Shown here: positions 23,436-37,754 of the stretch, one piece after another
How the letters are laid out: each line of letters opens with the position of its first letter
Position numbering within the stretch: the first letter of the stretch is position 1
DNA from: a virus
DNA length: 39,024 nt
Reading direction: 5' to 3' (one strand)
Virus record (IMG/VR): IMGVR_UViG_3300029858_000025
Translations under genes and position numbers: made by a program
The notes under the pieces: model-generated
Database searches by the model: none
What the model saw: only the letters and a program-made list of their open reading frames with translations
Told to the model about the DNA's origin: nothing

Positions 23436-26400
23436 ATGGCAAAGACTCAAGCAGAAGTAAGGGCGGCAAAGGACGCAAAATTAGGCATAAACAGAAATAT
23501 CCAAACGACAAAAAACACAACGAAATATAACTCTGCACCGAGCAACATCAAGGAACAGCGCGACCGTAAAGACGAGGCACTTGGCATTACCCGGCGCGAG
23601 GGCAGCACCTGGAATACCGGCAAAACCTATACAAAACCTACAGCGCAGTCCCTGCTCGACCAGTATAATGCCAATGCAAAGAAGCGTATTGAAGAAGCCA
23701 ATGCGGCCACACAGAAGGCAAAAAAGGAATATGACGATTATATTGCCAAGGAAGGCCGCATATACCAGAAGAACTACGGTGCGCCATCCGACAAGGCCAA
23801 CGAGCTGCAAAACAAGCTTAATCAGGCCCGTCTCGCCCAACGGGACGCAGAGAACGAGGCGACTATAACACGCCTTGCCCAGACATCTACACTGTACAAG
23901 GACAATAAGAACAAGAAGTCTAAGGTGGATATTGGCAGAACGACGGAGCTTTCCACAGGCATAAGGGCAAAAGAAGGTAATCTCACATGGGATACTGATA
24001 CCTATAAAGCCATGACCGACGAAGAGGTATCCGTCTATAACCGCCTCGCCAAGAACGGCAAGGAAAAGGAAGCAGAAGCCTTTCTGAAAGCGATAACCCC
24101 TACTCTGAACGCAAGGGTAACGCAGAACCGCCTTGAATCGGCACAGAAAACGGCGCAGGACGGCGTAATGGGCGGTGTGGGTGCATCTATCGCATCGTCC
24201 CTGCTAAAGCCTGTCACGGCCTTACAGGGCGGGATAAAGACTGTATGGGATTTTGCCACAGGCAAACCCATAGACACCAACGCCCCCGAATATTATGCCT
24301 CCAACCTCGCCAATACCTTGCGCAGTTCCGTAGCCGAAAAGATCGAGAACGGTGTGTACGAATCCACAAAGGGCGACTACACATACGACAGAACCGGTAC
24401 CCGGCGCATGACTACCGAGGGCGAGGCAAAGAACAACGGCAAGATTGCTTCATTCCTCTATCAAACCGGCATGAGCATGGCGGATATGCTGACCATGACT
24501 CCCTTCGGGCCTGTCGGCATGCAGGTAATGATGTCCTCCAACGCCGGCGTAGACACCATGATAGACGCGAAGAACAACGGCGCGACAGATGATCAGGCCA
24601 TGGCGCTTGGCATTGTATCCGGCGCAGCGGAGGCACTCTTTGAAAAGTTCTCCATAGAAAACCTGTTTCACGGCGGCGTATCTAAAAGTACTATCCTCGC
24701 GGCTCTCAAACAGGGCGGCATAGAAGCGTCCGAGGAAATGGCTACCGAGATAACTAATATCCTTGCCAATGAGGCCGTTATGGGTAACCAGTCTGACTTC
24801 AAGAAGGCCGTGGCTGAGTATAAAGAAATGGGCCTCGACGATAAGGACGCTAAGACAAAGGCGCTTGAGGAAAAGCTGCTCCAGGTGCTTGAAGCGGGCG
24901 CAGGCGGATTCCTGAGCGGCTTTGGCATGGGCGCGGCGGCGGATGTGATGAATACACAGTCCGCAGGGGCAGCCCTCATAAACGACTATGCCAACACTAT
25001 AGCAGAGGGCATGGATATAAACACATACCTCGAACAGGGTATGAGCGAGACCGAAGCAAATAGGGCAAGGCTGGCAGACGCAAAAAAACAGGCTATTCAG
25101 GAACTGTCGGCGGAACTTCAGGCAGAAGGCGCAGAACTTGAAAAAGGGACCGTTGCAAACAGACTATCCAATAAAGCATACACGAGCGAAAGCGACATAG
25201 GCCGGCAGTTCCTTGCCAATACCGAGGGAATGAGGCTTTCCAGCGGGAAAAGGGCTGATACTGATAACGATCTTACCAATGTTACTCCGGCGACCCGCGA
25301 GACGGCCAAGAGCCTTGATATGCTCGACAAGAGCAATATTGCGCGATACATCAACGAGATAACCGCGGCTCTGGACAGAAGCGCTGCGACTGGCAAGAAG
25401 ATACTTATCGGAAAGCCGTCCGGCATTCTTGCGGAGCAGATGAATTCCGATAACGTCTTACAGATGGATCAGTCTGTTGCGAGAAAGGTCGCTTTTGCTG
25501 ACAAAAAGGACGGCGGCAAACATAACCTTGGACGCGGTGTACTGGATGAGCTTCCATATCAACTTGCCGACCCTATGATAATAACGGGCAACACCACTGA
25601 CCATATTTCTAAAGGGGATACCAACAGCGTTGTTGTGTGGACGGACTGGCAGACCGAAAACGGCGATTCCGTCATAGTCCCCATTAGGATAGACGTAGAT
25701 GGCGCTATAGAACCATACAACAGCGTAAATTCCGTGTTTGACGCTTATAATCCTGCTTACGTTGCAGACCTGTTGAGAGATGAGAACATAAGGTACACGC
25801 GAAATAATAAAAGCGTCGAAGAGCTTCTTTCCAACAGGCGACAAGTGCCTGCCGCGACTCGCTCGGTCGACGCTTCCGACACCGAGGGGCTTCTTTCCAA
25901 CGGGCGAGAAGTGCCCGCCGCGACTCGCACCTCTGATGTCAATAACACCGTATCACAGGAAAGTGTTCGCGTCAAGGAGTACCTTGCGAATTTACGCAAG
26001 CCCACCGCACAGGAAACGTTAGCAGCTATTGCAGACGACCCCACGAAGGCGGAGGAACAGCTTAGCTTATCCGAAAAGGAACAAAACTTTGCCAAAAATC
26101 TCAGCCAGGCCGCACAGAACCTCAACATGGTCAACGCCGAGACCAAGGCTTTAGGGCGCGAATACTATACGCATTCAGAGGAAATGCCCTCCTTGCAGGA
26201 CATTCAAAAGAAAAACATAGAGGACTTTACCAGTGAGGATTTCAGCGTGCTGGCAAAGAATCTGCTCGGCAGCGGCAAGCAACGCCTTTATACCAAAGAA
26301 CCTTCCCGCGTATTCGATACGGTAGCCGGCAATAATAAGGCCCTGCGCAATACGCTGTATAACCTGTTCGAAAAGCCTTTTAACGAGGCGGGCGGCAATT

Positions 26401-29400
26401 ATGGCAAATCCCTTACTTCCTCAGTAGAATCCTATAAGGAGATCATGCGGAAGTATGACATAAAGCCTAAGAGCAAAGAAGATATAGCTGCCCAGCGTTA
26501 CGGAGAAGGGCAGTATCAGGGGCCGGACGGTGAAATGATGGAATATACCCTCGCAGACCTTCAGCGGGATTGTCCTGACACATGGGAGAACGTTAAGGGC
26601 TTCGCCGAGGCCAATAGACGGGTGTACGAAGATTACCTTAACCGCATAAATTCCATGATGGAGACCATCTACCCTAACATACTTGAGAATGCCGAGGAAG
26701 AATATCAAACTGCGGTATCCCGGCGCGACGTGGCGCAATCCAAGGTTGACGCCATGACCAGAGCCATAACCGAAAAACAGAACCGCATACAGCGGCTGCA
26801 GGACACCCGCAACAATAAACAACGGACCGACACGAAGGCTTTCGCCAAGATCGAGGGCAGTATAGCAGCAGAACAGGCGAAAGTAGACAGCATGAAAACC
26901 GAGCTGGTACAGCTGGAAAAGAAACTGCGCGTAGCGGAAATGAATGCGCAGGCTCAGCGGGCAGCGATAGACAGCGGAGCCATATATGAAGGCAAAAGGA
27001 TAATCCCCCGGAAGGACTATTTCCACCACGCGCAGGAAATGCTGAGCGATTACAGCGTGCTCGACTTCCTCAGGCCCAAAAACGTGACCGAGGATGTATC
27101 CCCCGCGCTGGCTGGCGTATCCGACCAGACAAAACCCAAATCCCGCTGGTGGGGAGCAATGTTCCACCGGGGGCGGGGGGCATACTTTGAGAGCGCCTCG
27201 AACGCCATGGCGAGTTATATCGGCATGGCGGAATACAAACTCGCGTATGACCCGCTTACCAACTATTATCGCAAACTGGAAACGACGATACGCGGCAGCG
27301 CAGATACCATCAACGCAAAGAACGCCTCAGGCTTTATCGAATGGGTTAAGGACTGGACGGACGGCATGAGCGGCAAAAGCGACCACGTTATAGACCGCGG
27401 TGTACAGAAGATACTTTCCCGCCAGACCTTGAACAGCCTGAATAATCTCAACAAGCGGGTACGTGCCAATAAGGTAATGGGCAATATCCGTACCATGATT
27501 GTGCAGGCATCAAATCTGCCTAACGCAATGAGCTATGTGACCAGCCCCAAAGCGTGGGCGCAAGGCATACAGATGCTTGCGGATTATCATCACAATCCTG
27601 ATTCCGAGATAGCCAAAGCAAGAGGACAATCTCAATTTATGGCCCAGCGCTACGGCAGCAACGCAATGGAGATTCTGGAAAGCGACGGGCTGAGCGCCAA
27701 GAAGCTCGCCGGCAAGGGCATGGAACTGCTTCAACACTGGGGTGATGAGCTTACATGGTTCTCTGCTTTTGCGCAGTATAACGAGAACCCACAGGCGGCC
27801 ATGTCCGGCATGAAGCGCACCTATGACAACGCCATAGACTATGCGGACGACATAACCCGCCGAAGCGTGGCAGGCCGAGGCGTAGGCGAGGGTGCACTGG
27901 TTAATAATTCAAAGGTGGTCAATCTGATCGCCCCGTTTCAGACCGAAATACTCAACCAATGGAATACATTTTTTGAGCACGTGAAGGATCTGAAGGCGAG
28001 CCCGCAGGCGCGAGCACGTGCCGCTGCCGGTCTCGCGATGTACGAGGTTACGGCCTTTGCATTCAACACGTTAGCACAGGCAGTGCTCGGTGACAAAGTC
28101 GTGGGCTTAGATTTTATAGGCGCTCTGGTAGATACCATAACGAACGCCATAAATGACGATGACGAGGACGAAGAAAAGGACGCCCTTGATTATGCCAAGG
28201 AACTGGGGCAGGCTTCTCTCGGAACTGTAGTGGACGCTGCTCCGTTTATAAACATAATCACCAGTTTCATGGGCGACGAAACCAGTAAAAATTTATTCGG
28301 CGAACATTCGCCTACCCGTTACGGCACCGGCAACATAGGCATACGGGCTGCGGCTGATGCCATGATGTGGGGCAAGGATACCGTTGAAACTCTTATCGAC
28401 ATGGCAGGCGGTAAAGCTACGGCCAAAGACCTGGACTGGGAGGGCGGCCTTGAAACCGCCGGCAATTTCGTAACGCCGTGGGGCGGCACACAGCTCGCGA
28501 GGACTGTCAAGGGCCTTGATACCTTCTTCAGGGGCGGCAAATACGACAAGAAGGGCAATCTGCAATACGCCGTGGCGAAAACCCCGTTCAACTTCCTTCG
28601 CGCCGCTACTCTCGGCCGCAGCATGCTGCCGGAGCAACGGGAGTGGGTAGCCAAGGGATTCCCCACGCTTACCCCGGAGCAGACCAAAGCGTATGGCGAA
28701 TTTAAAAAGGCGGGCGGCAACATAACCGCGTTTACGGACTTCAAGGCCAAGTATGATGAGCTCAAAAACAGCATCGGAGCGGACAACAGAGAGATAAGCA
28801 AGCTCGCCGACGAGATAGAAGCGGCCAACCCCATGCTGTCAGAGGCTCAGGCTAAAGAGCGGGCGCAGAACCAGCTCGGCAAGAAATACCGCAACGCCGA
28901 TAACGAATACCTTACCCTTGTTGCCGACAGCGACATGACGGACGAGCAGAAGCTTGCCGCCATGATGGCAATAGGAATGTCCGATGATGACATAAACAAG
29001 GTCAAGGGGCTTGTGAAAAACGGCGTTACCGTTGGCGAATACTTGAAGTACCAGAACCTTTACAGTTCTCGCGGGTCTACAAAAACCGAGGACAAAAACG
29101 CGCTCGTATCCGCGCTCATGGCTGATAAGACGCTCTCCGAGAATGAGAAGACCATGCTTGCCAACAGGATAATTGATGGCGATTGGGTGGTGGACTTCAG
29201 CAGCCAGGCGGCAAACGACATACTTACCCAGCACGGCAAGAGCAGTTATAACAAGTATCAGAAGGCCAAGACGGAAGCCGGGATATCCGCTGAAACGTAT
29301 CTCAGCTACGCAAATAAGAGCGATAACTTCATAAGCGACTACGACCAGTACGGCACGAGCATAAGCTACAGCAAAAAGGCTAAAGTAGTCGATTACCTCG

Positions 29401-29555
29401 AAAAAATCGATGCAAGCGAGGAACAGAAAGAATATATGTTCCATGAACTGTTCGGCTATACTTCAAGCTATCAGGCCCGCTTTAAGAAGCTTAAAGAAAT
29501 CGACGGCGTCTGGTGCTACGAGCACAACGGCGAATGGATAAGACCTACTTACTAA
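23436..29555 (+). CDS. Giant (2039 aa) virion-associated polyvalent/ejection or tape-measure-like protein
   Basis: Single uninterrupted ORF with coiled-coil stretches and glycine-zipper segments. Segment ~25390-25800 resembles polyvalent-protein nuclease-like modules. Confidence 0.8.
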   Translation: MAKTQAEVRAAKDAKLGINRNIQTTKNTTKYNSAPSNIKEQRDRKDEALGITRREGSTWNTGKTYTKPTAQSLLDQYNANAKKRIEEANAATQKAKKEYDDYIAKEGRIYQKNYGAPSDKANELQNKLNQARLAQRDAENEATITRLAQTSTLYKDNKNKKSKVDIGRTTELSTGIRAKEGNLTWDTDTYKAMTDEEVSVYNRLAKNGKEKEAEAFLKAITPTLNARVTQNRLESAQKTAQDGVMGGVGASIASSLLKPVTALQGGIKTVWDFATGKPIDTNAPEYYASNLANTLRSSVAEKIENGVYESTKGDYTYDRTGTRRMTTEGEAKNNGKIASFLYQTGMSMADMLTMTPFGPVGMQVMMSSNAGVDTMIDAKNNGATDDQAMALGIVSGAAEALFEKFSIENLFHGGVSKSTILAALKQGGIEASEEMATEITNILANEAVMGNQSDFKKAVAEYKEMGLDDKDAKTKALEEKLLQVLEAGAGGFLSGFGMGAAADVMNTQSAGAALINDYANTIAEGMDINTYLEQGMSETEANRARLADAKKQAIQELSAELQAEGAELEKGTVANRLSNKAYTSESDIGRQFLANTEGMRLSSGKRADTDNDLTNVTPATRETAKSLDMLDKSNIARYINEITAALDRSAATGKKILIGKPSGILAEQMNSDNVLQMDQSVARKVAFADKKDGGKHNLGRGVLDELPYQLADPMIITGNTTDHISKGDTNSVVVWTDWQTENGDSVIVPIRIDVDGAIEPYNSVNSVFDAYNPAYVADLLRDENIRYTRNNKSVEELLSNRRQVPAATRSVDASDTEGLLSNGREVPAATRTSDVNNTVSQESVRVKEYLANLRKPTAQETLAAIADDPTKAEEQLSLSEKEQNFAKNLSQAAQNLNMVNAETKALGREYYTHSEEMPSLQDIQKKNIEDFTSEDFSVLAKNLLGSGKQRLYTKEPSRVFDTVAGNNKALRNTLYNLFEKPFNEAGGNYGKSLTSSVESYKEIMRKYDIKPKSKEDIAAQRYGEGQYQGPDGEMMEYTLADLQRDCPDTWENVKGFAEANRRVYEDYLNRINSMMETIYPNILENAEEEYQTAVSRRDVAQSKVDAMTRAITEKQNRIQRLQDTRNNKQRTDTKAFAKIEGSIAAEQAKVDSMKTELVQLEKKLRVAEMNAQAQRAAIDSGAIYEGKRIIPRKDYFHHAQEMLSDYSVLDFLRPKNVTEDVSPALAGVSDQTKPKSRWWGAMFHRGRGAYFESASNAMASYIGMAEYKLAYDPLTNYYRKLETTIRGSADTINAKNASGFIEWVKDWTDGMSGKSDHVIDRGVQKILSRQTLNSLNNLNKRVRANKVMGNIRTMIVQASNLPNAMSYVTSPKAWAQGIQMLADYHHNPDSEIAKARGQSQFMAQRYGSNAMEILESDGLSAKKLAGKGMELLQHWGDELTWFSAFAQYNENPQAAMSGMKRTYDNAIDYADDITRRSVAGRGVGEGALVNNSKVVNLIAPFQTEILNQWNTFFEHVKDLKASPQARARAAAGLAMYEVTAFAFNTLAQAVLGDKVVGLDFIGALVDTITNAINDDDEDEEKDALDYAKELGQASLGTVVDAAPFINIITSFMGDETSKNLFGEHSPTRYGTGNIGIRAAADAMMWGKDTVETLIDMAGGKATAKDLDWEGGLETAGNFVTPWGGTQLARTVKGLDTFFRGGKYDKKGNLQYAVAKTPFNFLRAATLGRSMLPEQREWVAKGFPTLTPEQTKAYGEFKKAGGNITAFTDFKAKYDELKNSIGADNREISKLADEIEAANPMLSEAQAKERAQNQLGKKYRNADNEYLTLVADSDMTDEQKLAAMMAIGMSDDDINKVKGLVKNGVTVGEYLKYQNLYSSRGSTKTEDKNALVSALMADKTLSENEKTMLANRIIDGDWVVDFSSQAANDILTQHGKSSYNKYQKAKTEAGISAETYLSYANKSDNFISDYDQYGTSISYSKKAKVVDYLEKIDASEEQKEYMFHELFGYTSSYQARFKKLKEIDGVWCYEHNGEWIRPTY
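25823..25928 (+). repeat. Two 40-nt repeat units (37/40 identical) spaced 66 nt apart inside the giant gene
   Basis: gcttctttccaac(a/g)ggcga(c/g)aagtgcc(t/c)gccgcgactcgc at 25823-25862 and 25889-25928, encoding LLSNRRQVPAATRS / LLSNGREVPAATRT. Confidence 0.9.
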
Positions 29556-32219: not shown

Positions 32220-32774
32220 ATGAAGAAACTCACTTGTATCCTCGCGGCAATGCTCATGCTGTGCCTTTGCACCATAGCCTACGCTGCAGACCCCGTAACT
32301 CTGGATATAACCGCGCTGGACTACCAGACCGGCAAGGCGGTATCCAAGACCTACGTCAACAACGAGCTTTTCCTACTCGAGGTGGACCTGGGCATACCCC
32401 GGTTTTTCGACCTGACCGATATGGAGCTTATAATCGAACTGGACGGCGTAAAGCTGGACACAAACGACCTGAGATTGGAGGCTGGAACATATTACCTGAG
32501 CGGCATAGTTACCGACCAGCCCGCCGCTCTCCGTATAACCGTCAAGGACAAGGCCTACGAAAACGCCACCACGGCAGAAGAACTCTACAACGCCATGCAG
32601 AAAAACAGGACTGTAAGCAAGACCTACTATTTTAACACCGCGCAACCCGCCGAACAGCCCATTGCAAAAAATCCCGTGGTGATACCCAAGACCGGCGGCG
32701 CCTCCGTCCTCGCATATGCGGTATCCATAGCCCTGATAGGGTTCGGCCTTGCGGTAGCAGGTAAACGCAAATGA
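32220..32774 (+). CDS. Secreted cell-wall-anchored surface protein (sortase substrate, IPKTG motif)
   Basis: Signal peptide MKKLTCILAAMLMLCLCTIAYA. C-terminal sorting signal is IPKTGG (32682-32699) + hydrophobic ASVLAYAVSIALIGFGLAVAG + KRK. Confidence 0.8.
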   Translation: MKKLTCILAAMLMLCLCTIAYAADPVTLDITALDYQTGKAVSKTYVNNELFLLEVDLGIPRFFDLTDMELIIELDGVKLDTNDLRLEAGTYYLSGIVTDQPAALRITVKDKAYENATTAEELYNAMQKNRTVSKTYYFNTAQPAEQPIAKNPVVIPKTGGASVLAYAVSIALIGFGLAVAGKRK

Positions 32775-33996: not shown

Positions 33997-34038
33997 AACA
34001 GTACAATCTCATCCCACGTTCGGGATTCCCTTTCAATT

Positions 34039-34066
34039 GCCCCCCTTAATTGGGGGGCGTATTTTT
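34039..34066 (+). terminator. Rho-independent terminator (gcccccc-ttaatt-ggggggc + T-rich tail)
   Basis: Perfect 7-bp GC stem read directly after the holin gene. Confidence 0.8.
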
Positions 34067-34108: not shown

Positions 34109-34342
34109 ATGGATAAAGCATTGCTTAATTCCCGTTCCCGCACGGAATGGGAAGCACTCATACACGAATGGATACATAACGAAAAAGACCGCTGGCTGAT
34201 AACCCGCCGCCTTTTAGACGGGGTGTCATACGACGCTTTGACGGGCGAGTACCAGCTTAAATTTGAAATACCCCTTGAATATGACCAGATACGAAGGCGG
34301 TGCAAGGCTGCCGAAAAACAACTGAAAACGCACTGTAAATAG
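34109..34342 (+). CDS. Small putative DNA-binding protein (77 aa), stand-alone unit between two terminators
   Basis: ORF track. RRLLDGVSYDALTGEY resembles a region-4-like HTH. Weak RBS. Confidence 0.45.
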   Translation: MDKALLNSRSRTEWEALIHEWIHNEKDRWLITRRLLDGVSYDALTGEYQLKFEIPLEYDQIRRRCKAAEKQLKTHCK

Positions 34343-34351
34343 CCGATAAAT

Positions 34352-34386
34352 AGCCGATGGGAGCAATCCTGTCGGCTCTTTTTTTA
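34352..34386 (+). terminator. Rho-independent terminator (agccga...tcggct + T7)
   Basis: Stem 34352-34357 / 34372-34377 followed by cttttttt. It contains the ATG 34357 that the ORF track used as a start. Confidence 0.65.
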
Positions 34387-34419
34387 TGCCAAAATTCAGG
34401 TAGAAGGGAGCGTGAAACA

Positions 34420-34773
34420 GTGTATCCATACCAACCTTATTTTAACCAGCAAACCCAATATCAGCGAACCGAAGTAGTCAAAGTGAACGGCGAGGGCGGC
34501 GCAAAGGCGTATCAAATGCCCCCTAATAGCTCCGTTCTTCTGTTGGACGAAACGGCCCCCATAGTGTGGCTTAAAACAACGGACGGGGCGGGGTTCCCCT
34601 CTCTCTCGCCTTACAGCATAACCCCGTATAAACCCGCTCCGCCTGTCGATGTGAACGGCCTTGAACAGAGAATAGCCAGATTGGAGGAAATGATAAATGC
34701 CAAACCCGATACTACAAATGCTAAGCGGAGGAAGTCCGAGGAAACTCAACCCACAAATGATAGCGCAGGCTAA
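34420..34773 (+). CDS. Hypothetical protein (117 aa, VYPYQPYFNQQTQYQ...)
   Basis: GTG 34420 follows GAAGGGAG. The start was moved downstream of the terminator. Confidence 0.5.
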   Translation: MYPYQPYFNQQTQYQRTEVVKVNGEGGAKAYQMPPNSSVLLLDETAPIVWLKTTDGAGFPSLSPYSITPYKPAPPVDVNGLEQRIARLEEMINAKPDTTNAKRRKSEETQPTNDSAG

Positions 34774-34909
34774 ACAGATGATGTCCGTTCCTGGGCAAAT
34801 ACAGAAGATAAAGCAGATGATAGGCAACGGCGACCCTAAACAGATGTTTTATGCGGCCTGCAAGCAATACGGGATAGACCCCGAGGATATTCTTTCTGAA
34901 TTAAGGTAG
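34697..34909 (+). CDS. Hypothetical protein (70 aa, MPNPILQML...)
   Basis: ATG follows TGGAGGAAATGATAA. Overlaps the previous gene by 77 nt in another frame. Confidence 0.55.
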   Translation: MPNPILQMLSGGSPRKLNPQMIAQAKQMMSVPGQIQKIKQMIGNGDPKQMFYAACKQYGIDPEDILSELR

Positions 34910-34966
34910 ACCATTACCCGAAGCGCGCGCGGGATTGGAATATAAATCGAAAGGAACTTTAGAACT

Positions 34967-35548
34967 ATGGATAATATGCCCTCTCTCGCGGATATAGCCG
35001 CGGTAACTGATGGCAAGACTGACGGCTTCAACGGAGGCTTCTGGATATTCGCCCTTATCATACTTTTTGCTATGATGGGCGGCGGCTTTGGCGGCTGGAA
35101 CCGCCAGGGCGAATTTGGACAGTATGCCACCGCTGCGTCTCAGCAGGAAATTCTCTTCGGTCAGCACTTCGGCCAGATCAATGACCGCTTGACTAACATC
35201 GGCAATGGTATATGTGATTCCACCTTCGCGCTGAACAACGCTATCACCACCGAAGGCCGAAACCTGTCCAGCCAGCTCGCAAACTGCTGCTGTGAACAGA
35301 GGCTCGGTATAGCTAACCTTTCAGCGCAGATGAACCAGAACACCTGCGACATAACCACCGCTATCCACGCCGAGGCCGAGGCCACCCGCTCCCTGATACA
35401 GGCGAACGAAATGCAGGCTCTCAGGGACAAAGTGTCCAGCCTTGAGATGGATAACCGCATGTACGGAGTAGTCCGCTATCCCAACGGTTACACCTACAAC
35501 GCGGGGAACTCCCCCTTCTGTGGTAATAATTGCGGCTGCTGCTGCTAA
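34967..35548 (+). CDS. Membrane-anchored coiled-coil protein with Cys-rich C-terminus (193 aa, 10 Cys, ends CGNNCGCCC)
   Basis: Gly-rich TM segment GGFWIFALIILFAMMGGGFGGW. Contains NCCCEQ and ends FCGNNCGCCC. Confidence 0.65.
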   Translation: MDNMPSLADIAAVTDGKTDGFNGGFWIFALIILFAMMGGGFGGWNRQGEFGQYATAASQQEILFGQHFGQINDRLTNIGNGICDSTFALNNAITTEGRNLSSQLANCCCEQRLGIANLSAQMNQNTCDITTAIHAEAEATRSLIQANEMQALRDKVSSLEMDNRMYGVVRYPNGYTYNAGNSPFCGNNCGCCC

Positions 35549-35616
35549 TTCCGGCTATGCCGTGATATATCGGGGCGGCGTATGCTGCCCCTTGATTTTT
35601 GAAAGGAGCATAAAAA

Positions 35617-35997
35617 ATGGCTTGTAAAAATGTATGCAAACTCTGCCCCAACCTTATAATCTCCCAGGCCGTTACCTTCACGGCGGGAACCGGGCTGATA
35701 ATCAACCTCCCGGCAGGCAACTATAACGATAATCAGAAATACTGCATCGTGGTAGCTCAGTCTATCCCGGCGGCTACCACTATAACCGCGCCCGTGTTTG
35801 TCACCATAGGCGCCGGCACGGAGCAGTACCCGCTGATAAATAGCTGCTGCGCCCAGGTCACAGCTTGCGCCATACGCACCCGCACCAGGTATGCTACCAT
35901 CGTCAAGACCAACGCCACGGGCGGCAGTTTTAAACTGCTCAATAAAACTTGCACACCCACTAACAGCCTTGCAAGCATTAACGGAGGCGCAGAGTAA
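35617..35997 (+). CDS. Cys-rich small protein (126 aa, 8 Cys, N-terminal CKNVCKLC)
   Basis: RBS AAAGGAG. No signal peptide. Confidence 0.7.
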   Translation: MACKNVCKLCPNLIISQAVTFTAGTGLIINLPAGNYNDNQKYCIVVAQSIPAATTITAPVFVTIGAGTEQYPLINSCCAQVTACAIRTRTRYATIVKTNATGGSFKLLNKTCTPTNSLASINGGAE

Positions 35998-36428
35998 TGA
36001 GCTTTAAGGAGATCATAAACCTGATATCCGAAAGACACGGCGACATGACGGAAGTAACCGATGCGCTCTCTGATATGATGCACACGGTAAAGGACCGTCT
36101 GCCGGAAGTGTACAAGGAAACAATGTATTGCCTCGAAGAAATAGCATATCGGATAACTCCCGAAGAGGCGCGGCAGATAGTCAAGGGTATGCGCCCATAC
36201 GGTCAAAAATGGGACTATGATACCATCAAGGCGTTTCTGGCGACGAAGGGCATAACGGCGGTATGCAAATACTATCTGTGCATGAATATGTACTACAACG
36301 ACAGTCACGATACCGCCGAAATGGTAGGCAGGGGAGAAGACCCGGAGTTTTATTTCAGCCTTGCAAAAGATTTCATTAACGACATAGACGGTAAGGATTT
36401 CAAGGTTGAAAAATATTTTACTGCGTAA
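35997..36428 (+). CDS. Hypothetical acidic protein (143 aa)
   Basis: TAATG start/stop overlap with the upstream gene. Confidence 0.65.
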   Translation: MSFKEIINLISERHGDMTEVTDALSDMMHTVKDRLPEVYKETMYCLEEIAYRITPEEARQIVKGMRPYGQKWDYDTIKAFLATKGITAVCKYYLCMNMYYNDSHDTAEMVGRGEDPEFYFSLAKDFINDIDGKDFKVEKYFTA

Positions 36429-36429
36429 C

Positions 36430-36463
36430 TGGCAACCTTCCGGCAACTTTCTGGCAACCTTTT
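36430..36463 (+). repeat. Three tandem YGGCAACYTT repeats (candidate integrase arm-type sites, left arm of attP)
   Basis: tggcaacctt c cggcaacttt c tggcaacctt. The 22-nt ggcaactttctggcaacctttt (36442-36463) is repeated at 36662-36683. Confidence 0.5.
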
Positions 36464-36578
36464 ATTTCAAGCCCTAAAACGAGCGTAAACGGAAAATATA
36501 GATAAACAGCCGCTTTTTACGGACGAAAAACTGCGAGGAACTGAATAAAAAACGGGTAGCCGCCGGATACCAAACATC

Positions 36579-36607
36579 AAAAACGCCTGTGCTACACGGG
36601 CGTTTTT
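36579..36607. terminator. Bidirectional terminator (A5-stem-loop-T5)
   Basis: aaaaacgcctgtg-cta-cacgggcgttttt, 12/13 complementary. Lies between the convergent moron cluster and the integrase gene. Confidence 0.7.
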
Positions 36608-36641: not shown

Positions 36642-37754
36642 TCATTTTGTGGTTTCGCTCTGGCAACTTTCTGGCAACCTTTTTTTGAAAGCGTCCATAA
36701 CCGCGCCCGCGCTTGCGTCCTCTTTTTCCTTTGAAAGGTGTGAATAAATTTCAAGCGTTACCTTTACGTTGGCGTGGCCAAGGAATTTCTGCGCGGAAAG
36801 CACGTCAACGCCGGCATTATAGAGTATGGAGGCGTAATTGTGCCGGAAGTAGTGCGGCGTGAGGATAGAGGCGCCGTCCTCTCTCGTTTCTATGTCGGGC
36901 CCCAACTCTGCCATGCGCTCCATCAGCGAACGCCATAGCCTATTTGAAGAGGAATTGCGATAGTATGTGCCATCGGGGGCGGGGAATACAAACGCCTGCG
37001 GGAATCCCCGCACGAGCATTTCCGCCAGCTCGTCCGGCAGGGGTATATCCCGTATGCTCTCCTTCGTCTTGGGCGGAGTTATCATGCCCTTCCTTAAATT
37101 GACCTGCTGCCGGACGTGTATGACCTTCTTCCTGAAATCTACACATTCCCATTGCAGGCCGAGGGCTTCGCCGAGCCTCATTCCGGTATAGTATAGCAAT
37201 GCCACCAGCAGGCCGTTTTCCTCCTGCATCAGCTTCTTTGCCGCTTCTTCCTCCGCTTCCGTCAGCGCCCGGCGGCTTGACTTTTCTTTCGTGGGCTTGA
37301 CCAGCCCCACGGTCACGTCCCGCTGGATTATCCCCTCGGAGTATGCCCGCTTAAAGACGGATTCTAACACATGATGTACATTTTCGATTATGGTTACGCA
37401 CGTATCGCCCTTGGAGTTAAGCAGCTCCTGCAAATCCATAGTGGATATTGCGGTGAGTCGCTTGTCCCCCAGAACAGGCAATATGTGCTTGTTGAGTGCC
37501 GTCTTATATCCGCTCTGTGCCGATTCCTTTATGTTCGGCTTTTTGTAGACATTATACCACTGTATGGCGTATGGGCCGAAAAGCGCGTCCTTCTGTGCGG
37601 TGCGCCCGGTGATGAACTCTTGTTTGACCGCCTCCTTCGCGGCCTCCAGCTCCTTCTTTGTGCGCCCGGATACATATTTTATCACGCTGCCGCCGTTCAT
37701 ATCCTTACCGACGGTTACTTTAGCCCTATACCTCCCGTCACTTTGCCTTGCCAT
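36642..37754 (-). CDS. int: Tyrosine integrase
   Basis: 370 aa. C-terminal catalytic region TPHYFRHNYASILYNAGVDVLSAQKFLGHANVKVTLEIYSHL, with upstream GMRLGEAL (Arg). Confidence 0.9.
   Translation of the reverse strand: MARQSDGRYRAKVTVGKDMNGGSVIKYVSGRTKKELEAAKEAVKQEFITGRTAQKDALFGPYAIQWYNVYKKPNIKESAQSGYKTALNKHILPVLGDKRLTAISTMDLQELLNSKGDTCVTIIENVHHVLESVFKRAYSEGIIQRDVTVGLVKPTKEKSSRRALTEAEEEAAKKLMQEENGLLVALLYYTGMRLGEALGLQWECVDFRKKVIHVRQQVNLRKGMITPPKTKESIRDIPLPDELAEMLVRGFPQAFVFPAPDGTYYRNSSSNRLWRSLMERMAELGPDIETREDGASILTPHYFRHNYASILYNAGVDVLSAQKFLGHANVKVTLEIYSHLSKEKEDASAGAVMDAFKKRLPESCQSETTK
36660..36683 (+). repeat. Two tandem TGGCAACYTT repeats (right arm), inside the integrase 3' end
   Basis: Exact 22-nt copy of 36442-36463. 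Confidence 0.5.

Follow-up and report, generated by a model that had tools for sequence, protein, structure and literature searches.

The viral genome fragment IMGVR_UViG_3300029858_000025 of the IMG/VR collection, a window of 39,024 nucleotides (nt) to which all unqualified coordinates refer, carries a cassette of six small genes between its lysis genes and its phage attachment region. All six are on the plus strand, and every public name for their products is 'hypothetical protein'. Upstream lie genes for a holin (Phage_holin_4_1, E 8e-42) and an NlpC/P60 endolysin, both recognized in a Pfam scan. The first cassette gene, p77 (34109–34342), encodes a small basic protein of 77 amino acids (aa), probably of the helix-turn-helix (HTH) kind. 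The gene of the p138 family (34420–34773) encodes 117 aa from a GTG codon with a GGGAG ribosome-binding site, the longest open reading frame (ORF) beginning at 34357, and its 3' end overlaps by 77 nt with p70 (34697–34909; 70 aa). The p193 gene (34967–35548) encodes 193 aa with ten cysteines, the motif NCCCEQ and the terminal sequence FCGNNCGCCC. It is followed by p126 (35617–35997), a protein of 126 aa with eight cysteines and the N-terminus MACKNVCKLCPN, and by p143 (35997–36428), an acidic protein of 143 aa (pI 4.9) coupled to p126 by TAATG. An ORF listing placed the six genes, both cysteine counts, the motifs, the overlap and the coupling where an earlier reading of this DNA, referred to here as the original prediction, had put them.

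Terminator-like hairpins divide the region. One closes the lysis cassette (34038–34059, T-run to 34066; eight pairs, seven of them G-C) and another separates the regulator from the remaining genes (34352–34377, T-run to 34386; 11 pairs), so that the terminators predicted after the holin and after the 77-aa gene were both found. A third hairpin was added to that list: it is G+C-rich, is followed by TTGATTTTT and occupies the p193/p126 junction (35572–35591, or to 35599 with its tail) as an internal terminator or attenuator. An Rfam scan of the cassette region gave no match.

A pattern scan of species-level genomes for the p126 family yielded 80 loci (these and further loci and contigs are cited below by L numbers), almost all of them from Oscillospiraceae and other Clostridia, with some from Lachnospiraceae. 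Among the host genera are Flintibacter, Pseudoflavonifractor, Oscillibacter, Acutalibacter, Anaerotruncus, Agathobaculum and Butyricicoccus; a few metagenome-assembled genomes carry assignments to other phyla, probably through mis-binning. The ORFs of these loci, of two metagenomic phages and of the window, 83 sources altogether, were compared by iterative profile searches. A p126 homologue was present in 82 sources, p193 in 79, p138 in 73, p70 in 57 and the last gene, which belongs to the DUF7841 family, in 48. A small HTH gene was found in 49, being of the sigma-factor-like type in 38 and of the p77 type in 11. The order HTH, p138, p70, p193, p126, DUF7841 is constant, and absent members are partly explained by truncated contigs. 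Fixed order and shared presence bear out the proposal that these genes form one functional unit, including the co-occurrence check that had been suggested with it.

The cassette is extremely common in gut viromes. About 4970 homologues of p193 and 5330 of p126 were counted as clusters at 90% identity, and p193 still has 767 representatives at 50% identity; with hundreds to thousands of homologues per protein, the cassette is not a chance arrangement. The exact p193 sequence of the window occurs in 2210 indexed blocks of a public assembly collection, on at least 1000 contigs, and the exact 117-aa p138 sequence has been called on at least 1000 public contigs. Phages of Clostridia from human and animal guts carry thousands of variants of the p193 family. 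Phage cargo as a genomic kind is known; this six-gene structural system is new, and its component families are uncharacterised.

The most informative member is p126, a basic protein (phrog_31654) whose 112 family members showed no consistent Pfam family. An AlphaFold2 model computed with 112 sequences (pLDDT 77.5, pTM 0.71) is an eight-stranded beta sandwich in which residues 1–8 and 111–126 are disordered. A first run with 38 close sequences had reached a pLDDT of 54, too poor for use, and its Foldseek search was uninformative; ten divergent relatives (27–33% identity), found via Bajarodcaudo virus 5, raised the value to 77.5. A Foldseek search of the PDB with the later model gave no match with E below 0.1, and none to solved BclA or C1q structures. 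In BFVD, the model matched its own family (E down to 8e-16) and long phage proteins named tail fibre, T7 tail fibre, tail-collar fibre, collagen triple-helix repeat and trimeric adhesin stalk, with query-normalised TM scores of 0.42–0.59 and probabilities of at least 0.95. A protein named C1q-domain matched more weakly (TM 0.30, probability 0.66), and a 294-aa protein of a crAss-like virus, named DUF7841, aligned with the model over 93 columns (TM 0.56, rmsd 2.4 Å). From the model, p126 appears to be a fibre-tip-like beta-sandwich knob. The original prediction had recognized neither a structural nor a catalytic family in the cluster; the first half of this statement has to be given up for p126, and the second agrees with scans of Pfam, PHROGs, NCBIfam and PADLOC, which returned DUF7841 and unnamed PHROGs for the six proteins and nothing else. 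The anti-phage defence scan (PADLOC) gave only a chance-level match to AbiEi (E 0.03), and PDB sequence searches with single proteins and with profiles gave coiled-coil noise only.

Within the p126 family C7, C10 and C43 are invariant, and C3 and C78 are kept in at least 90% of members. C3, C7 and C10 belong to the disordered N-terminal tail or are adjacent to it; C43 and C78 are core residues. The CX3CX2C spacing to which the original prediction drew attention is indeed present at the N-terminus of the window protein; it is not conserved, and the conserved set is CX2C with two distal cysteines (C7, C10, C43 and C78). Distant members have C-x9-C-x2-C, in which CX2C is again the conserved element. 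A radical-SAM-type iron–sulphur (Fe-S) site of the CX3CX2C form was rejected on this ground and because none of the 112 members matched a radical-SAM family. The wider suggestion in the original prediction, that the cassette encodes cytoplasmic metal- or Fe-S-binding proteins with a redox or metal-handling role, is highly improbable. It can draw on the four conserved p126 cysteines, CX2C and two distal, on the CXC-rich, metallothionein-like tails of p193 and on a rubrerythrin-like protein (Pfam E 0.003) in the last slot of L001, but no match to Fe-S, ferredoxin, radical-SAM or metallochaperone families was found, the CX3CX2C spacing varies, the other cassette proteins are coiled-coil and disordered, and the fold of p126 and the exchange of its slot indicate a knob and not a redox protein.

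That exchange was seen in two phages. In MT835537 (L002) the slot after p193 is occupied by a 132-aa protein that matches BclA_C with E 2e-4, below the curated cut-off, over positions 2–126 of the 128-position profile. In Dulem virus 39 a 145-aa protein, BclA_C-like by eye only, follows p193 beyond a 79-aa ORF. No BclA_C match was found among the 112 members of the p126 family in Pfam, and homology of p126 to the BclA_C-like replacement was rejected after an hhalign comparison of the p126 family with the L002 protein (probability 0.2%). Judged from gene content, the knob slot is exchangeable between p126-type and BclA_C-like proteins.

The partner gene downstream of the knob is closely coupled to it. 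In 43 of 45 loci the gap between p126 and DUF7841 is 0–18 nt, or the two genes share 4 nt. p143 passes the Pfam DUF7841 model with 32.3 bits against a cut-off of 25.2, and its L002 homologue does so with E 8e-23. The window protein is a short form; most relatives have 230–310 aa and include a disordered region rich in R, G, Y, D, E and M, and the long forms carry the motifs FRDRRGREHYDNGRYAP and …NRIGF…. The last cassette protein of Dulem virus 39 has the same YDNGR(F/Y)AP motif between different flanking domains. A literature search found DUF7841 mentioned in no paper.

p193 (phrog_16490) is the candidate anchor. It begins with an acidic peptide, SLADIAAV, and in 120 sequences a hydrophobic core of 12–14 residues stands between glycine runs, with a net charge of -2.3 on the N-terminal flank and few lysines or arginines on either flank. 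The body is helical or coiled-coil, with a CCC motif and a IHAEGEATRALIQ segment, and its PDB similarities are to coiled coils only. A conserved motif, GVVRYP..TYNAG.SPF, precedes a Gly/Cys-rich tail; the last 22 residues contain two to six cysteines (CXC/CGC) in all 78 loci and three or more in 76 of them. No signal peptide or lipobox was visible when the translated cassette proteins were read by eye. In the complete genome of Bajarodcaudo virus 2 (L083, 4988–5816) the p193 homologue starts past the expected hydrophobic segment; the anchor may be truly absent from this variant, or a frameshift or assembly error may account for its loss.

The outline of p193, an N-terminal anchor followed by a coiled coil and cysteines, resembles an i-spanin, and the cassette follows holin and endolysin genes in the window and in many other loci. 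On these grounds the cassette can be proposed to be an accessory set that assists holin and endolysin at the membrane, for example by timing lysis, by disrupting the membrane or by exporting the knob in the manner of a holin, and the small BhlA/XhlA-like membrane proteins seen by eye in or beside variant cassettes (no Pfam family for the one scanned) fit such a role. The comparison with Rz/Rz1 extends to the proline- and glutamine-rich N-terminus of p138. It ends at the absence of a visible lipobox or signal peptide in the cassette proteins and at the hosts, monoderm Clostridia that need no spanin. Membership of the spanins was rejected, since a lipobox partner was not seen by eye and the hosts are Clostridia. 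The cassette, moreover, is often unlinked from lysis genes, standing apart from them in L001, Bajarodcaudo virus 2, Dulem virus 36 and Dulem virus 39, it lacks a lipoprotein partner, and it has its own terminators and regulator. A role in lysis is therefore very unlikely.

The two genes ahead of p193 encode p138 and p70. p138 (phrog_21718, E 4.7e-12) consists of a Y/Q/P/N-rich N-terminus of variable length, a conserved domain, beta-rich and some 55 aa long, with the pattern V.S..EA…G….F.D…IY.K…G, a coiled coil and a charged tail. Its C-terminal part matched only coiled coils in the PDB, and 43 members scanned individually showed no consistent Pfam family. Low-complexity disordered regions are found in p138 and in the long forms of DUF7841. 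p70 is small, basic and probably helical, as judged from its sequence. Its start varies in public gene calls, which give forms of 70, 63 and, in many cases, 50 aa; the 70-aa start is favoured because the N-terminal NPILQ region is kept in L001.

The junction between the regulator gene and p138 contains a hairpin with a T-run in 18 of the 31 loci in which both genes are present and adjacent. In the window it is followed by TGCCAAAAT (34387–34395, plus strand), an extended -10-like element 24 nt ahead of the p138 GTG. The strict pattern TGN-NAHAWT occurs 21–37 nt ahead of the p138 start in 11 of 73 loci, compared with 2.6 ± 1.6 in shuffled sequences, and about 20 loci have a hairpin, a T-run, a -10-like hexamer (often with an upstream TG, and 21–26 nt before the start) and a ribosome-binding site in that order. 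We infer from this arrangement that the extended -10-like element might be the operon's own promoter. In L013, L016, L024, L038 and L044 the HTH gene begins 1–26 nt past a lysin or holin gene, and since it abuts these genes in several loci, read-through from late transcription is also likely.

The regulator itself was approached through its relatives, p77 of the window having no Pfam match. An iterative profile search from p77 gave a family of 11 loci, whose members match Sigma70_r4 with E 1e-4 and Mor with E 0.02, both below the curated cut-off. At 38 other loci a Sigma70_r4_2 protein occupies the p77 slot, and in L002 and Bajarodcaudo virus 5 the HTH protein of this slot scores above the Pfam cut-off (Sigma70_r4_2 or Sigma70_r4). 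On these profile matches p77 is probably the regulator of the cassette, of the sigma-70 region 4 or Mor type, which is in line with its earlier designation as a putative regulator.

A second control point may lie within the operon. A G+C-rich hairpin followed by TTGATTTT was found at the p193/p126 junction of at least 50 of 75 loci, with stem sequences that differ between loci, compared with 4 of 54 at the p70/p193 junction and none of 45 at the p126/DUF7841 junction in the same scan. This distribution suggests programmed attenuation, by which p138, p70 and p193 would be produced in excess over the knob and DUF7841. The hairpin stems at the p193/p126 junction vary in a compensatory-looking way across L001–L082.

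The contexts in which the cassette occurs are diverse. In the window and in most loci it stands after the lysis genes and ahead of an integrase gene. One phage has it in a cargo region shared with HicAB, Bro-N and a serine recombinase, in MT835524 it is placed after reverse-strand genes, and in Dulem virus 39 it lies behind the integrase. In Bajarodcaudo virus 2 the cassette, its HTH gene included, is inserted between the portal and the scaffold/capsid genes. In Dulem virus 36 four core genes without the HTH follow the receptor-binding-protein gene, the p138 start lying 11 nt past its stop codon. In this apparently virulent phage nearly all genes are co-directional, replication genes of its own are present, and 50 of the 53.8 kb contain no annotated integrase. 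The backbones of the carriers are unrelated and labelled as myo-, sipho- and podoviruses, and a megablast comparison of the structural region of the window with phage records gave no match. The HTH gene travels with the cassette in temperate-type contexts. The description of the cluster as terminator-bounded holds, and it is mobile between phage backbones.

The original prediction had also taken the cluster for lysogenic-conversion cargo. Its position at the attachment end, its terminators and its mobility agree with this, and in these three respects it resembles the toxin and fitness genes carried between lysin gene and att by staphylococcal and streptococcal prophages, and the morons of lambda-type phages. 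The cassette differs from that cargo in being a six-gene structural set with a regulator, not a single secreted toxin or enzyme, and in occurring in structural operons as well, with its four-gene core in an apparently virulent phage. Because of these occurrences, lysogenic conversion cannot be the general role of the cassette.

The same contexts raise the possibility of an accessory virion fibre, with p193 as the stalk, p126 or a BclA_C-like protein as its exchangeable tip, DUF7841 as a tip chaperone, and p138 and p70 as attachment proteins. The fold of p126 matches phage proteins named tail fibre and collagen-repeat, the tip slot is swapped for BclA_C-like knobs, and the genes run in the same direction as late structural genes and directly adjoin them, namely those for the receptor-binding protein in Dulem virus 36 and the portal and capsid in Bajarodcaudo virus 2. 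Assembly in the cytoplasm would need no secretion signals, and a knob gene with a coupled partner is in the order of a fibre gene and its chaperone. The closest known counterparts are stf-tfa of lambda and other accessory fibres with their chaperone genes, whose tips stand on collagen or coiled-coil stalks, and which resemble the cassette in the modelled knob fold, through the proteins named tail fibre and collagen-repeat, and share with it the coupled partner gene, the exchangeable tip and a place at the end of the late region by att; the neck passage structure of lactococcal phages and the head fibres of phi29 may also be compared. In the cassette, however, stalk and knob are separate small polypeptides, and the N-terminus of the stalk is a hydrophobic segment of membrane type that is universally conserved. 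A transcription factor of its own in temperate-type contexts and flanking terminators are likewise unexpected of a virion component, as are the long low-complexity P/Q/Y and R/G/Y/D regions. The cassette crosses virion morphotypes, and on unrelated myo-, sipho- and podovirus-labelled backbones there is no common attachment site; the window phage, furthermore, already encodes a tail fibre protein. On balance a virion fibre is doubtful, while deserving serious attention.

A different set of likenesses leads to the endospore appendages of Bacillus (Ena1A/B, Ena3A, L-BclA and ExsL). The literature on Ena and L-BclA describes eight-stranded subunits of about 120 aa with a flexible Cys-bearing N-terminal peptide and conserved core cysteines, which assemble themselves without secretion signals. 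p126 resembles them in size, in its eight-stranded sandwich, in its Cys-bearing N-terminal tail, a flexible connector of the Ena type, and in its conserved core cysteines. Like p126, the Ena subunits are encoded close to an anchoring protein and to a C1q-like BclA_C knob. The differences are that the cassette has no DUF3992 or CotZ match and no PDB fold match, that it is carried on phages, that its anchor is a membrane-type coiled-coil protein and that its conserved cysteines have the form CX2C+C+C. p126 was therefore rejected as a member of the Ena/DUF3992 family, no DUF3992 match having appeared in the 112 members even at E up to 10, nor any PDB fold match.

Phage-borne spore-surface proteins of a coat or exosporium-like kind are quite unlikely. 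Such proteins would be made in the mother cell and would form, on the outer forespore membrane, a cross-linked layer of knobs analogous to ExsY/CotY, BclA, Ena and CotVWXYZ. The composition of the cassette proteins is that of an outer layer, with Cys-rich, Y/Q/P-rich and R/Y/G-rich disordered proteins, BclA_C-like knobs and the rubrerythrin-like protein of L001; like coat proteins they have no signal peptides, and the small region-4/LuxR-like regulator is reminiscent of GerE. The literature on Ena and L-BclA adds that N-terminal Cys connectors can join knobs and jellyrolls into spore fibres. The cotVWXYZ cluster of B. subtilis, under GerE, is similar in comprising five small structural proteins, Cys-rich and helical ones among them, and a mini-regulator of the region-4/LuxR-like kind, but no sequence relationship was detected and there is no evidence of sporulation-specific promoters at the cassette. 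No match was obtained to DUF3992, CotZ/Y, Coat_X, GerQ or YjcZ models, and none by Foldseek to solved structures, Ena or BclA included if they are in the library. The element ahead of p138 resembles a housekeeping extended -10 and not the -10 of sigma-K or sigma-E, the HTH gene abuts lysis genes in several loci, and core genes occur in an apparently virulent phage. Agathobaculum, Butyricicoccus, Oscillibacter and Pseudoflavonifractor, which are described as non-sporulating, also count against a spore function. The best 15 of 280 papers from a literature search contained no precedent for prophage-encoded spore-surface proteins.

The reading preferred here, tentatively, is that the cassette is a self-contained mobile accessory operon of gut Clostridia phages whose products form a stalk-and-knob assembly anchored by p193 and acting at the envelope in exclusion, adhesion or the masking of debris. 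p193 would oligomerise through its coiled coil, its hydrophobic segment lying in the cytoplasmic membrane so that the acidic N-terminus faces outward and most of the protein remains inside. The p126 knob, stabilised by a metal or disulfide site made of CX2C+C+C, would dock on the p193 stalk and would be made in smaller amounts owing to the hairpin upstream of its gene. DUF7841 would be a knob-specific partner or chaperone, and p138 and p70 would be coiled-coil and disordered accessory subunits. As the cassette proteins have no secretion signal, the complex would assemble inside the phage-carrying cell, expressed from the operon's own promoter or by read-through of late genes. It would then alter what the envelope of the infected or lysogenic cell, or its debris, shows to other phages or cells, by exclusion or adhesion and not by catalysis.

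Several points weigh against this assembly at the envelope. The role is one that we infer. p193 has a short hydrophobic core and weak topology signals in the 120 sequences. The numbers of cysteines in the p193 tail and in the N-terminal tail of p126 show no significant covariation (rho 0.17, p 0.14), and the site formed by the conserved cysteines of p126 could lie wholly within that protein. The exclusion proteins that are known to us are single small proteins, not five-gene sets. Finally, a virion component fits at least as well the position of the core behind a receptor-binding-protein gene in an apparently virulent phage and that of the cassette in a head operon.

A bolder proposal, which is speculative and rather unlikely, is that the cassette encodes a phage-borne, self-assembling appendage of a kind not yet described. 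It would have a membrane-anchored coiled-coil stalk, exchangeable knobs and links through Cys tails or metal, and would use no secretion signals. With it, thousands of phages of gut Clostridia would decorate the host cell, its spores or the material set free by lysis. Such an appendage would work like the Ena/BclA spore fibres, to which it is unrelated in sequence. Should the cassette prove to be an exclusion device, or an appendage of the surface or the spore, it would have consequences for adhesion, persistence and phage resistance in lysogens of abundant gut Oscillospiraceae. A conserved set with its own regulator, no enzyme and a fibre-tip-like knob is a concrete and cheap target for learning what hosts or particles gain from temperate gut phages. 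The present analysis gives working family definitions that cover two cassette variants and the exchangeable knob slot, and it fixes the attP boundary of this prophage.

The second of these variants has a 125-aa gene ahead of p138 whose product, with a GDC…GHVV pattern, has a papain-type look and no Pfam match. Among the 15 assessable loci with this gene, p70 is missing in all 15 and DUF7841 in 14, which suggests that the 125-aa protein and p70/DUF7841 are functional alternatives. Variant cassettes were noted in L008, L011, L012, L018, L023, L026, L028, L031–L033, L036, L039, L046, L047, L078 and L080. The idea that the p193 N-terminus is a double-glycine leader served by the 125-aa protein was dropped, since the fit of the hydrophobic spacing is poor and Pfam gave no match for the 125-aa protein.

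The attP boundary was drawn from integrated copies of the same phage. Those in L087, L088 and L093 follow the window sequence as far as about 36575 and continue in host DNA, diverging after GGTAGCCGCCGGATACCAAA in the right boundary of the attP core (36551–36576). Because they leave the window sequence at this point, the window represents a circular or excised form, and in the prophage the cassette is the last element before attR. The att-proximal position claimed for the cluster was thereby borne out at the prophage end. The predicted bidirectional terminator and att region are both present after the cluster in the window, the terminator being placed beyond the crossover, towards the integrase; in the prophage the cluster is followed by host DNA and not by this terminator. 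This terminator-like inverted repeat, AAAAACGCCTGTG/CACGGGCGTTTTT (36579–36607), has 13-nt arms that are 92% complementary, with an A-run and a T-run. Three tandem copies of the 11-nt repeat CTGGCAACYTT (36429–36461), probably integrase arm sites of the P arm, and two further copies (36660–36681) flank the crossover point. The tyrosine integrase is encoded by an ORF on the minus strand (36642–37754), whose equivalent in L090 has Phage_integrase Pfam matches. In L087, L088, L092 and L093 the prophage is joined to at least two host contexts, with cyclase/DUF2238 genes in one and penicillin-binding-protein (PBP) or aminotransferase genes in others, and a host terminator hairpin follows each prophage/host junction. 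The different junctions suggest several integration sites or several host species.

Some cassettes are interrupted by HNH/NUMOD homing endonucleases, integrases or other genes. Endonuclease-like inserts were found in L050 (3381–4136, minus strand), L069 (1791–2780, plus strand) and L075 (4174–4845, minus strand). The L075 insert has NUMOD4, HNH_3 and NUMOD1 domains; those of L050 and L069 are homing-endonuclease-like by eye, the L050 protein having no significant Pfam match. Another insert, a protein of about 78 aa, is encoded between p193 and the knob gene in L086 (7181–7414), L085 (6681–6920) and L079 (4790–5029). It is BhlA/XhlA-like by eye, with an N-terminal hydrophobic helix and a coiled coil next to it, and the L086 copy has no Pfam family. 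A holin-like partner could export proteins without signal peptides.

Elsewhere in the window, a single ORF of 2039 aa (23436–29555, plus strand) occupies the tail region and gave a weak match to the unnamed phrog_22978 and nothing more; no tape-measure or tail-tube PHROG was matched among the ten structural ORFs of the window that were scanned. Between the tail genes and the endolysin gene, a 184-aa protein (32220–32774, plus strand) has an N-terminal signal peptide and a C-terminus composed of IPKTG, a hydrophobic stretch and KRK, which is a sortase sorting signal of the LPXTG type. Its gene is kept in all eight integrated or related copies, and the protein is a more conventional candidate than the cassette for surface display by the lysogen.

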